Shown here piece after piece: positions 27,590 to 29,096 of a stretch of DNA of 64,000 bases (its first letter is position 1; each line of letters starts with the position of its first letter). The notes beneath the pieces are model-generated. The model was given only the letters and a program-made list of their open reading frames with translations. It was not told the origin of the DNA and ran no database searches. The position numbers and the translations under genes were made by a program. Origin of the DNA: Escherichia coli (GTDB lineage: Bacteria > Pseudomonadota > Gammaproteobacteria > Enterobacterales > Enterobacteriaceae). The stretch lies in NCBI RefSeq assembly GCF_050320075.1, contig NZ_CP190018.1; one strand, written 5' to 3'.

Positions 27590-27726
27590 TATTCATTCTT
27601 CCAGATTCCTTCCGGCAGAGCCTTATACTGGAATATACCTGGCTCAGGATATTGTTGAAAACATTATATGTTTGTCAAAAATAAAAGTTCTGTTAAGTAT
27701 TGATTGAGTGTTTGTTATACGGTCTA

Positions 27727-28053
27727 ATGGTTTTTTCAGTATTAAATATTTATCATTCATATGGTGTGGGTAGAGTGAATATTGATGAGGCGTCGGGGTG
27801 TTTCATCCTTAGGCAGCGTATTGATATAGTCAATGCAGCACGAGCAAAGGCCTTCAGCCGTTTGACAGTTTTGTTCTGTACTCCTGATCGTCTTTCGGGA
27901 AGAGACGTTATTCTTCTGAATAGTGATGCTATACAGAGGGTTTGCGATGAGTTCATGGTTGCTAATTCAGAATTATTTGCTCTTGTTCAGGAGTACAACA
28001 GAATAGCCAGGACCTGTGGTATGGATGAACTTCGGATTACTCATCTGGGGTAG
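27727..28053 (+). CDS. Hypothetical cargo protein at the stx-equivalent site
   Basis: ORF 27700..28053 (TTG) or 108 aa from ATG 27727; weak RBS; AT-rich surroundings. Confidence 0.35.
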   Translation: MVFSVLNIYHSYGVGRVNIDEASGCFILRQRIDIVNAARAKAFSRLTVLFCTPDRLSGRDVILLNSDAIQRVCDEFMVANSELFALVQEYNRIARTCGMDELRITHLG

Positions 28054-29096
28054 ATACATATCTGGATTATCACCTGTTACGGTAAAAAGTGATTGCTTAC
28101 TGTTTTTGTGAATGGCATTGCAGCAGCCGGATAATGTCAGTGCTGGCTGACGGTGTGCTGGTGGCGGGTGTGGTGGTTGTTGCTTTCCCGTTGCTGAAAA
28201 AGAAAACGCCAGACTGTTAGCCGGGTATCAGTTAGCGGGAGAAATTTTTAAATACTTCACAATTCAGGCGGTTGACTGTTGTCTGGTTTGCGGGGAGTTT
28301 GTTAAAAGAAACTGGCATGGTGAATCCCCCTGTGCGGAGGGGCAATCAGCGAGTAGGTATATGGGATAATCGCGGATTCAGGTGCTGGTACTGAATTCAC
28401 CGGGAGGCACCCGGCACCATGCAATGGCACATAGCGCCACTCTCCAGCCCCTCTCCGGAGGGGCTGTTTATATTGATTTTGTCAGATGTGAGTAAACTCC
28501 TTATGGACTTTGTTGTTTTAGTCCATAAGGACATATTTGCAGAGTGCAACGGTTATTAAAGCATTCATTCAATACGTTATCTGTATTTGTAGGGCATTCC
28601 TGGCTGTTTTTGATTAAATTCCAGAATGTTTTATTGAATGGTACTACGTTGTAAATGGTTACAGGTAGCACTTTGTTATTGAGCATGATACCTGTGTGAG
28701 TCAGTGTAAATATACTTTCAGGAGGTAAGAAAGCATCCGATTGATATCAGATTATTAATTTTACTTTACTCCATATGACTGAAAAAGATATTCCGCATGA
28801 TGGCTGGATAACTGTATCAATCACAATCCACTTCATTTAGCTTCCTTGTTTATGCCTTGCTGGTGATGTTCTGAAAAGTATAAATGATATTTTTGAATGT
28901 AAACCATAGCGCAGAATTATTTTTCTGATGTTGTTTATTGTTTATTTAAATGCAGGGTGGTTTATATCTCGTCTTGTAGTTTATCCATGCATATCTGCTT
29001 GATAATCAGGTTTTTATTTAAGGTATGGTTTTGTGTTTTTTCTGTATTACATATCCGGTATTTTAAAGAATTATTTTTCAGATAGTGGAAAGAACC

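Follow-up and report, generated by a model that had tools for sequence, protein, structure and literature searches.

What does a lambdoid prophage carry at the position where Stx phages carry stxAB, if stx itself is not there? We addressed this question in a 64,000-nucleotide stretch of Escherichia coli DNA (assembly GCF_050320075.1, contig NZ_CP190018.1; hereafter the window). A preliminary description of this DNA had proposed that the AT-rich sequence downstream of Q, pR'/tR' and the tRNA genes, at 27620-29090, is an stx-equivalent cargo site that contains an unknown ORF, a 28-aa hydrophobic peptide ORF resembling a type I toxin, and strong hairpins. Every feature it listed was found in the sequence where it had been placed. 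Three further elements had been missed, namely an iraL pseudogene (28501-28836, minus strand), an STnc100-family sRNA (28286-28475) and a remnant of nanS-p (29097-29285). Judged from synteny, the region is the stx-equivalent moron site of the prophage. We consider it highly probable, taking the account as a whole, that this site holds a mosaic of ORF92 with a small membrane peptide, the sRNA STnc100, an inactivated iraL gene and the nanS-p remnant.

Position and boundaries of the cargo site

The equivalence to the stx site was borne out by comparison with two Stx2 prophages. Both the Stx2a prophage L010 and Sakai Sp5 match the window across the tRNAs, depart from it where they carry stx2AB and match it again at STnc100 (window 28257 onward), and this synteny places the exact stx2AB-equivalent slot at approximately 27598-28256. 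The absence of stx from the window was likewise upheld. Q (26368-27189), a tR'-like terminator (27270-27289) and two tRNA genes all lie upstream, as had been described. Both tRNA genes are on the plus strand, were recovered by ARAGORN and by the Rfam tRNA model, and are annotated by PGAP in the identical database record: a tRNA with anticodon CAT (ileZ-type; tRNA-Ile in PGAP) at 27333-27408, and tRNA-Arg (TCT) at 27513-27589. The tRNA block (27333-27589, plus strand) is 86% identical to the block upstream of stx2A in L010 and constitutes the left edge of the cargo site. The region is also as AT-rich as proposed, with 39.4% GC against 49.8% for the whole window; GC-richer blocks within it coincide with the peptide segment (55%) and the sRNA (54.6%).

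The right edge is a DUF1737 ORF at 29097-29285 (plus strand), a truncated 5' remnant of nanS-p (SASA esterase). It matches Pfam PF08410 (E = 4.3e-14), is 88% identical to the SASA esterase gene of a related locus (L005) over the initial 159 nt of that gene, and is annotated by PGAP as a pseudogene 'missing C-terminus'. Because of this remnant, the earlier statement that the site contains no nanS is not quite right.

The arrangement is best explained as the moron site of a lambdoid prophage, flanked by Q, pR'-tR' and the tRNA block and by the lysis genes. Its cargo is a mosaic of four modules: ORF92 with a DUF3927 peptide; STnc100; iraL; and the 5' remnant of nanS-p. Known elements predominate, and most of the region is ordinary and has been described before. 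Its novelty is low: the block at 27291-31039 shares 95% identity with the potB prophage of CFT073, the prophage in which iraL has been characterised, and the sRNA family is curated in Rfam.

The DUF3927 peptide and ORF92

The peptide ORF proposed at ATG 28134-28220 (28 aa, plus strand) is present and encodes MSVLADGVLVAGVVVVAFPLLKKKTPDC. Its form in the databases is longer, a 43-aa ORF at 28089-28220 that begins at GTG 28089 (PGAP WP_000562553.1), and the product is a DUF3927 / TciB-like small membrane peptide. Residues 2-43 match Pfam PF13064 (DUF3927) at E = 1.7e-27, with 95.6 bits against a cutoff of 25, and the peptide also matches phrog_1470 (E = 7.8e-13). The family-homologous part, at 28121-28220, comprises one hydrophobic helix followed by a KKK tail, with a Kyte-Doolittle 13-residue maximum of about 2.9 over residues ~18-35. 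The first ~11 codons of the 43-aa ORF belong to a junction sequence at 28054-28120 (plus strand, 34% GC), which contains GTG 28089 and is specific to the ORF92-DUF3927 arrangement; the N-terminus derived from it is not hydrophobic. Canonical DUF3927 members (~38-50 aa) have two hydrophobic segments, of which the window peptide has the second only, and the canonical gene overlaps an upstream TerB-like (TciA) gene by 4 nt, as at L011-L013. The window has no TerB-like partner; the gene before the peptide ORF is ORF92, with 35 nt between the two. The name TciB reportedly comes from the annotation of the phage P1 genome, and a literature search on DUF3927 and TciB found no experimental function. 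A promoter-like site at 28106-28135 is probably a chance occurrence, because its -35 lies in the non-conserved junction sequence and transcription from it would start within the peptide ORF.

The peptide ORF may accordingly be read in a second way, as a non-functional, 5'-truncated remnant of a TerB(TciA)-DUF3927(TciB) module that remained after recombination had brought in the ORF92 module. Similarity to the DUF3927 genes of other loci opens only at codon ~12 (at about 28117-28121), the first hydrophobic segment and the TerB partner of L011-L013 are both absent, and SD pairing is weak at either start (28089 or 28134), all of which this reading would explain. It fits less well with the wide occurrence of the 43-aa WP_000562553.1, found in many genomes and at ≥99% identity in 1034 records, copies too alike to gauge constraint. 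The very high Pfam score over residues 2-43 further implies a variant within the family as now defined, and a shorter variant without a TerB partner exists at another locus too (L008). We give the remnant interpretation somewhat less than an even chance.

The large plus-strand ORF upstream of the peptide, described as running from TTG 27700 or ATG 27727 to 28053 (117/108 aa), is likewise present. It had been called unknown, and it does lack any Pfam or NCBIfam match and is skipped by PGAP; it is nevertheless a member of a catalogued phage family, phrog_2873 (E = 1.8e-69), and its conserved form has 92 aa, starting at GTG 27775 and ending at 28053. Sequence comparison indicates that this form, ORF92, is a real gene and that the 108/117-aa form is ORF92 plus a non-conserved 5' extension. 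The long form was rejected as the conserved product because, 5' of GTG 27775, L005 is frameshifted with stops and L006 is non-homologous. A homologue that PGAP does annotate begins at the equivalent GTG, and among the three candidate starts SD pairing is strongest, though still weak, at GTG 27775. A terminator-like hairpin inside ORF92 (27889-27907) was also considered; it is not kept in L004 or L006 and probably arose by chance.

Could the 108/117-aa ORF be merely a chance open frame in an AT-rich spacer, as PGAP implicitly has it? Such a frame would be expected to lack annotation, as ORF92 does in 28/28 sampled high-identity RefSeq genomes, to lack Pfam, NCBIfam and PADLOC matches, and to have weak translation signals. 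This explanation is nonetheless improbable in the face of clear purifying selection: in three independent pairwise comparisons, 92 codons align without gaps at 68-72% nucleotide identity, and dN/dS is 0.25-0.26 in frame, and in that frame solely, against 0.8-1.25 in control frames. More distant members, at 32-40% identity, are all 91-95 aa long, align from M1 with an identical start position, and include genes in unrelated accessory loci. PHROG membership and an AF2 model that is confident (pLDDT 89) from only 10 sequences also argue against a chance frame. ORF92 is therefore best regarded as a selected, widespread gene that RefSeq annotation systematically misses: it is found in 24% of complete E. 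coli genomes, with approximately 1300 carrier genomes, and is nearly always unannotated.

The predicted fold of ORF92 is a coiled-coil hairpin, and its structural matches were limited to generic coiled-coil hairpins, so that a function is not assignable from them. The neighbours of distant ORF92 relatives include AraC-, LuxR/GerE- and PapB-type regulators, a type IV pilus operon and TerB-DUF3927 pairs. On account of these regulator neighbours and of its place in the stx slot, ORF92 might be an undescribed accessory-genome regulator, for example an anti-activator or protein-binding modulator by analogy with TraM or ANR, rather than a passive passenger; we put this forward as a speculative assignment, with the odds clearly against it. 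ORF92 and the peptide would likely be made from the Q-antiterminated late transcript, since they have the late-operon orientation and no strong terminator intervenes between the tRNAs and the sRNA terminator.

STnc100, the type I toxin question and the inactivated iraL gene

An intrinsic-terminator-like hairpin had been noted downstream of the peptide. It is present at 28445-28475, with a U-tract and a dG of -20.3 kcal/mol, and is reinterpreted here as the terminator of an STnc100-family prophage sRNA (28286-28475, plus strand; related to EcOnc27/sRNA103 and PasD). The match to Rfam RF02076 covers the full model (1-206 of 206) with 132.4 bits (gathering score 47; E = 5.5e-30). A terminator scan identified the Rho-independent terminator as a stem at 28445-28466 plus the U-tract, and RNAalifold on 10 copies yielded a consensus of 46 pairs, in 9 of which pairing is maintained although both sides have changed. 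In the window and 8 related loci, STnc100 lies between pR' and the lysis genes of a lambdoid prophage, the sRNA location in lambdoid prophages reported by Tree et al. (2014). Homologues in EDL933 and Sakai are transcribed, Northern-confirmed and Hfq-bound (PMC5331693, PMC12711010, PMC7873438). By analogy with these homologues, which are expressed in lysogens, this prophage sRNA would bind Hfq and act in trans; it has a Rho-independent terminator of its own. The sequence at 28248-28285 (plus strand), comprising a TTAAAT box (28248-28253), CACAATTCAG and TTGAC, is kept in 10/10 aligned copies, tandem-array copies included, and is a putative STnc100 promoter or 5' extension. We infer from this conservation that it may be the promoter and that each STnc100 copy is probably under its own. 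As a -10 element the TTAAAT box matches only moderately, and a generic promoter scan did not flag it.

The presence of a structured sRNA 65 nt downstream of the peptide ORF bears on the earlier claim that the peptide is a type I toxin, with the nearby hairpins as part of its RNA regulator. The peptide is small enough for this class (28/43 aa, below 60 aa) and has the strongly hydrophobic single helix and KKK tail; prophages carry type I toxins, and hokD lies upstream in this same prophage. The claim was nevertheless not supported, because the first ~11 codons of the peptide are junction-derived and no antisense or partly complementary RNA partner was found at the locus. The sRNA is on the same strand as the peptide ORF, belongs to a trans-acting family, and occurs without the peptide too, both after stx2B and in tandem arrays. 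Duplex energies between the sRNA and the peptide mRNA were no better than those of shuffles (fraction at least as good 0.07-0.50, against mononucleotide shuffles, a weaker control). Over the ORF, the minus strand has no promoter-like or terminator-like site; the Rfam search gave no antitoxin RNA, even at E ≤ 10, and PADLOC gave no match. Reverse-complement matches elsewhere in the window were limited to two of 12 nt, which is the chance expectation in 64 kb, with none longer. Membership of DUF3927 also points away from a type I toxin: canonical proteins of this family carry a pair of hydrophobic segments, and their genes share a 4-nt overlap with a TerB-like gene. Taken together, these results make the type I interpretation very improbable, and we retain the assignment to the DUF3927 / TciB-like family.

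The minus-strand segment at 28501-28836 is a pseudogene of iraL, which encodes an RssB anti-adaptor of the IraM family. Compared with CFT073 IraL, 109/111 codons are identical (98%), the only changes being I25V and W30*; the second of these is a nonsense substitution in codon 30 (28749-28747), from TGG to TGA, corresponding to C to T on the plus strand at 28747. PGAP annotates the gene in the identical record as 'anti-adapter protein IraM, internal stop'. The fragment after the stop matches NCBIfam NF007393 with 75 bits (E = 3.9e-21), and intact iraL homologues reach 162 bits (cutoff 121); intact copies are present in L002, L008, L009 and L015, and approximately 1400 genomes carry iraL. Identity to K-12 IraM is 63% at the amino acid level and ~70% at the nucleotide level, with homology to K-12 iraM restricted to the coding region. 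The intact frame of ~107-111 aa is interrupted in the window by the TGA at codon 30, and on that ground the window copy counts as a pseudogene rather than as a working member of the family.

The iraL 5' UTR and promoter region (28837-29096, minus strand; 30% GC) is ~98% identical to the region upstream of intact iraL copies. The published 28-nt 5'-RACE sequence matches exactly at 28869-28842 (minus strand), placing the transcription start at 28869, and TATACT at 28882-28877 is a candidate -10. The gene would thus be transcribed convergently with STnc100 from its own sigma-70 promoter, with a start site that is experimental in CFT073. IraL of UPEC CFT073, encoded in the potB prophage island, belongs to the IraM/IraL/RssC family of anti-adaptors and stabilises RpoS through its binding to RssB (Hryckowian et al. 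2014, mBio, PMC4045071). Because the TGA truncates the protein to 29 residues, IraL function has most likely been lost in the window copy, and with it, probably, its stabilisation of RpoS. Low-level readthrough at the UGA of codon 30 could occur, as could reinitiation at M51 (28686) giving a fragment. This single nonsense change in a prophage gene may reduce log-phase RpoS relative to strains with intact iraL.

The perfect stem at 28499-28530, given as 11 bp in the preliminary description, is present but has 12 bp and is the 3' end of minus-strand iraL. Translation and alignment with intact iraL and K-12 iraM place in it the last codons (…GLKQQSP) and the TAA stop. Its dG is -17.5 kcal/mol (z = -5.7), 0/200 shuffles folded as well, and it probably serves the iraL mRNA as a weak terminator or as a stabiliser of the 3' end. 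Although Tree et al. (2014) described convergent sRNA pairs at exactly this site, and AsxR in Sakai Sp5 begins 2 nt past STnc100 on the opposite strand, we rejected as extremely improbable the proposal that the stem terminates a short AsxR/AgvB-class anti-sRNA, transcribed from the minus strand towards STnc100 in the manner of EHEC prophages: the stem lies within the iraL frame, where it supplies the final residues and the stop codon, and intact iraL copies share it; AsxR as mapped in Sakai Sp5 has no similarity to it, the AsxR sequence and GC-rich, U-tailed terminator being unlike this AT-rich stem, which no U-tract follows; and neither AsxR (RF02703) nor AgvB (RF02702) matched in 28050-28600 at E ≤ 10, in a search whose positive control, Sakai Sp5, scored 88 bits.

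Comparison with known systems

Among small prophage peptides, the type I toxins (Hok, TisB, Ibs, Ldr, ShoB and Zor) resemble the window peptide in size, in the single hydrophobic helix with a charged tail and in prophage location. The window peptide differs from them in having no cognate RNA, no match to their families, and relatives that are encoded in operons with a TerB-like protein. Another parallel is the TciA(TerB)-TciB(DUF3927) pair of P1-like and phiP27-like phages: membership of Pfam DUF3927 and phrog_1470 is common to both, and both lie just upstream of lysis genes in prophages. In the window, by contrast, the TerB-like partner is absent, junction sequence (MIAYCFCEWHC) stands in place of the first hydrophobic segment, and an sRNA rather than holins follows the peptide.

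STnc100 corresponds, by its full-length covariance-model match, to EcOnc27 (sRNA103) of EHEC Stx2 phages and is related to the PasD sRNAs of EPEC. The position is alike, in that the sRNA follows pR' and the cargo genes and precedes the lysis genes, and the conserved helices and Rho-independent terminator are shared as well. The window RNA has a shorter central variable region than the Stx2-phage copies (190 nt against 206-213) and is a single copy, whereas tandem arrays of 2-5 occur in some prophages. The element convergent with it is iraL; in Stx2 phages that element is the anti-sRNA AsxR.

CFT073 carries the same iraL gene in the same orientation and with the same neighbours (DUF3927, STnc100, the DUF1737 remnant and holin), and the window is identical to it at the mapped 5' end of the mRNA and in the region upstream. 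The two also share a C-terminal QQSP extension and the 3' hairpin, both of which K-12 iraM lacks. The window allele is set apart by TGA for Trp30, for which it is annotated as a pseudogene, and by I25V.

The Stx2 phages (Sakai Sp5, L010) have an identical framework of Q, tR', ileZ/arg tRNAs, cargo, STnc100, convergent element, nanS-p and holin. Their cargo is stx2AB (about 1.3 kb), whereas that of the window is ORF92 with the DUF3927 peptide (about 0.66 kb), and nanS-p in the window is cut down to a DUF1737 stub. One framework, consisting of the tRNAs, cargo, STnc100, a convergent element and nanS-p, thus takes stx2AB, ORF92 with DUF3927 or AraC-type regulators interchangeably, which implies that the slot swaps its cargo by recombination.

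Framework of the cargo site

The 27.6–29.1 kb interval of the window is part of a lambdoid E. coli prophage, in its late region. On the plus strand it is preceded by the Q antiterminator gene (26368–27189; Pfam Antiterm, E = 5.8e-54), by a tR'-like intrinsic terminator located by terminator scan between Q and the tRNAs (27190–27296, stem 27270–27289), and by two tRNA genes detected by ARAGORN and Rfam, one with anticodon CAT (27333–27408) and one for tRNA-Arg (TCT; 27513–27589); holin, endolysin and spanin genes follow downstream. The GC content of the cargo region is 39.4%, against 49.8% for the window, with the peptide segment and the hairpin-bearing stretch forming GC-richer islands.

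In the Q antiterminator there is a CXXCXGXG zinc-finger signature of DnaJ type (Pfam DnaJ_CXXCXGXG, 28.4 bits, under the cutoff of 32.7), which we suspect explains the 'prophage chaperone' label on some Q homologues. In Stx phages, the short pR'–tR' transcript is the regulatory sRNA StxS; for 27190–27296 (+), the only Rfam match was a sub-threshold 'Trp leader' (25.5 bits against 41). Stx-phage tRNA clusters typically include ileZ, a lysidine-modified Ile tRNA. The homologue of the 27333–27408 (+) gene is annotated by PGAP and in Sakai as tRNA-Ile (ileZ, anticodon cat), and ARAGORN calls the gene tRNA-Met (CAT).

The preliminary description had placed here the equivalent of the stx site, and synteny with a Stx2a prophage (L010) and with Sakai Sp5 bears this out; each feature it listed was also recovered in place. 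The L010 gene order is tRNA-Ile, Arg, Arg, stx2A, stx2B, STnc100, an iraM-like pseudogene (−) and nanS-p, and Sp5 has the same framework as the window and L010. Pairwise BLAST between the window and L010 demonstrated homology through the tRNAs to 27597 (86%) and again over 28257–29254 (70%), and the gap between these blocks places the stx2AB-equivalent slot at approximately 27598–28256. Tree et al. (2014) described a moron insertion site 3' of pR', with sRNA genes there in eight Sakai prophages.

The DUF1737 ORF at 29097–29285 (+) matches the opening 159 nt of the gene for the SASA-family sialate esterase, nanS-p, at 88% identity and is flagged by PGAP as missing its C-terminus; a 5' stub of nanS-p is therefore present in the window. 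At the same place, Stx2 prophages and others (L005, L009, L010) have a full-length nanS-p. In strain AR_0114 (L008 ~712–734), the DUF3927 gene begins directly after a truncated tRNA-Arg, its upstream context being the tRNA anticodon arm, which indicates that recombination events inside the tRNA block have reshuffled the cargo.

ORF92 and the DUF3927 peptide

The main elements of the site, namely the STnc100 sRNA, iraL, the DUF3927 peptide and the nanS-p remnant, have already been described; ORF92, a 92-aa gene running from GTG 27775 to 28053 (+), is the sole under-described item. An unknown plus-strand ORF of 117 or 108 aa (27700/27727–28053) had been reported here, for which Pfam, NCBIfam and PADLOC returned no match. 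PGAP left ORF92 unannotated in all 28 high-identity genomes sampled, although 1313 of 5426 complete genomes contain its segment. Three results establish it as a gene: a match to phrog_2873 (E = 1.8e-69); a 92-codon frame that stays open and gapless at 68–72% DNA identity in three lineages (the window type, an AraC-linked type in L004/L005, and a free-standing type in L006 that has a terminator of its own); and a dN/dS of 0.25–0.26 in frame against 0.8–1.25 in the other two frames. The reported starts, however, did not hold. The conserved start is GTG 27775, 5' of which L005 carries a frameshift and stops and L006 shows no homology; this codon has the best SD pairing among three candidate starts, and the one PGAP-annotated homologue starts at the equivalent GTG. 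In some Stx-type prophages, a 241-aa AraC-family regulator (phrog_1450; Pfam HTH_18) lies directly 5' of a diverged ORF92 (L004 164–889, L005 3254–3979).

Searched exhaustively by HMM, 1.84 billion representatives yielded only 19 relatives of ORF92, five of which share 32–40% identity, are 91–95 aa long and align from residue 1; common motifs include R23, FSRLTV, TPDR and AN-EL--LV-EYN. Distant members always lie in accessory DNA: after a Q-like antiterminator, before a TerB–DUF3927 pair and holins, beside AraC-, GerE- or PapB-type regulators, or at the end of a type IV pilus operon. Our guess is that ORF92 has a regulatory or protein-binding role.

The DUF3927/TciB-like peptide can be read as 43 aa from GTG 28089 or as 28 aa from ATG (28134–28220, +). 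The 43-aa form matches Pfam DUF3927 (E = 1.7e-27) and phrog_1470 ('TciB-like') and is annotated as WP_000562553.1 in many genomes; the start of the 28-aa form is an internal Met conserved in the family. Homology to all diverged DUF3927 loci starts only at ~28117–28121, which marks the first ~11 codons (MIAYCFCEWHC) as junction sequence. Of the two hydrophobic segments found in canonical members (L008, 38 aa; L011, 50 aa), the window peptide retains just the second, along with a KKK tail; in a distant prophage type (L011–L013), a 4-nt overlap joins the DUF3927 gene to a TerB-like gene, and the holins come directly after it. The truncated window variant may be either a small membrane protein that still functions or a remnant.

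The preliminary description had read the 28-aa form as a type I toxin. Being a small hydrophobic peptide is the sole feature in favor of that reading, which we do not uphold: a scan found no promoter-like or terminator-like site on the minus strand over the peptide ORF, Rfam returned no antitoxin RNA family at E ≤ 10, pairing of STnc100 with the peptide mRNA was no better than that of shuffled sequences, and STnc100 is abundant in loci without the peptide. A genuine type I toxin gene, hokD (24041–24196, +; 51 aa, MKQQKAMLIALIVICLTVIVTALVTRKDLCEV…), so annotated in the identical RefSeq record, is located elsewhere in this prophage, about 3.5 kb upstream; the prophage thus carries a type I system, but away from the proposed site.

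STnc100 and late transcription

The full Rfam model of STnc100 (RF02076), a prophage sRNA, matched 28286–28475 (+) with 132.4 bits (gathering score 47; E = 5.5e-30). The intrinsic-terminator-like hairpin noted earlier at 28446–28475 is real (28445–28475; G+C-rich, U-tract, dG −20.3 kcal/mol) and is the Rho-independent terminator of this known sRNA. STnc100 stands at the same position in all retrieved related loci spanning the cargo genes to the lysis genes, a set without L006, the K-12 locus of iraM (L007) and the contigs of distant homologues; its distance downstream of stx2B is 75 nt in L010 and Sakai. Tandem copies are frequent and occur in L005 (five), L002 (two) and L008 (two), the arrays being head-to-tail, with four consecutive copies and one more in strain 88-3493 (L005 2665–2877 and 4637–5616). 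The consensus fold, from an alignment of ten copies, has 46 pairs, nine of them kept through both-side changes. A RefSeq 'hypothetical protein' pseudogene at ~28305–28430 (−), antisense within STnc100, is probably a spurious call spread by homology among the many sRNA copies.

Conservation extends ~40 nt 5' of the Rfam start, through a TTAAAT box (28248–28253), then CACAATTCAG, then TTGAC. This upstream box precedes every array copy, even those directly after the preceding copy's terminator, which suggests that each copy has its own promoter; the TTAAAT box is only a moderate −10 match. Published expression evidence concerns homologues only: EDL933 has eleven transcribed copies, one confirmed by Northern blot (PMC5331693), and the copy that follows stx2B overlaps EcOnc27/sRNA103, an Hfq-bound sRNA that increases fimZ and espA transcript levels when overexpressed (PMC12711010, PMC7873438). 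The PasD sRNAs of EPEC are related to STnc100 (2026 preprint).

ORF92 and the DUF3927 peptide gene are oriented as the late operon, and the scan found no strong terminator before that of the sRNA. On this basis, both would most plausibly be expressed on the Q-antiterminated late transcript, which, by analogy with lambda Q biology, may also extend past the STnc100 terminator to the lysis genes.

The iraL pseudogene and its relatives

Translation of the minus strand over 28836–28501 revealed a gene that, by its sequence, is specifically iraL. PGAP labels it 'anti-adapter protein IraM, internal stop' on a 100%-identical record, and the post-stop part matches NCBIfam NF007393 (E = 3.9e-21). IraL is the RssB anti-adaptor characterized by Hryckowian et al. 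in UPEC CFT073, whose potB prophage (L015) has the layout of the window, with 95% identity over window 27291–31039; the window protein and CFT073 IraL differ only by I25V and W30-to-stop. The published 28-nt iraL mRNA 5' end (5' RACE) matches exactly at 28869–28842 (−), within the AT-rich 5' UTR and promoter region (28837–29096). The lesion is a single base, codon 30 changing from TGG to TGA (plus-strand C to T at 28747). Intact 111-aa copies are present in L002, L008, L009 and CFT073, and the iraL-type segment occurs at ≥95% identity in about 1400 complete genomes. Anti-adaptor function has most probably been lost in the window copy.

The perfect stem at 28499–28530 was confirmed by folding (dG −17.5 kcal/mol, z = −5.7), but it has 12 bp rather than the 11 first reported and is the 3' terminus of iraL (−), a gene that had been missed. 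It holds the GLKQQSP codons and the TAA stop, its 3' arm encoding a four-residue extension. Since no U-tract follows, the stem may act as a 3' stabilizer or weak terminator of the iraL mRNA. Tree et al. found convergent sRNA pairs at this prophage site, and in Sakai AsxR (88 bits) abuts STnc100; in prophages of the window type, it is iraL that converges with STnc100. An AsxR/AgvB-type anti-sRNA identity for the iraL hairpin was rejected: the window contains no AsxR/AgvB match, and Sakai AsxR has no similarity to window sequence.

In the lysogen, pR' transcripts would end at tR', and morons with their own promoters would act on the host, STnc100 as a trans-acting Hfq sRNA and IraL by sequestering RssB and so raising sigma-S; the W30 stop would disable the window copy.

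K-12 IraM shares 63% protein identity with window IraL and lacks the four-residue C-terminal extension. Its gene (L007, K-12 1211680–1213107) lies on the border of e14, beside ymgK, ymgL and ycgX (DUF1398); the lysis cassette of the window prophage, like that of CFT073, is directly followed by a DUF1398 gene and ynfO. The K-12 iraM locus therefore resembles what is left of a prophage late region of this kind.
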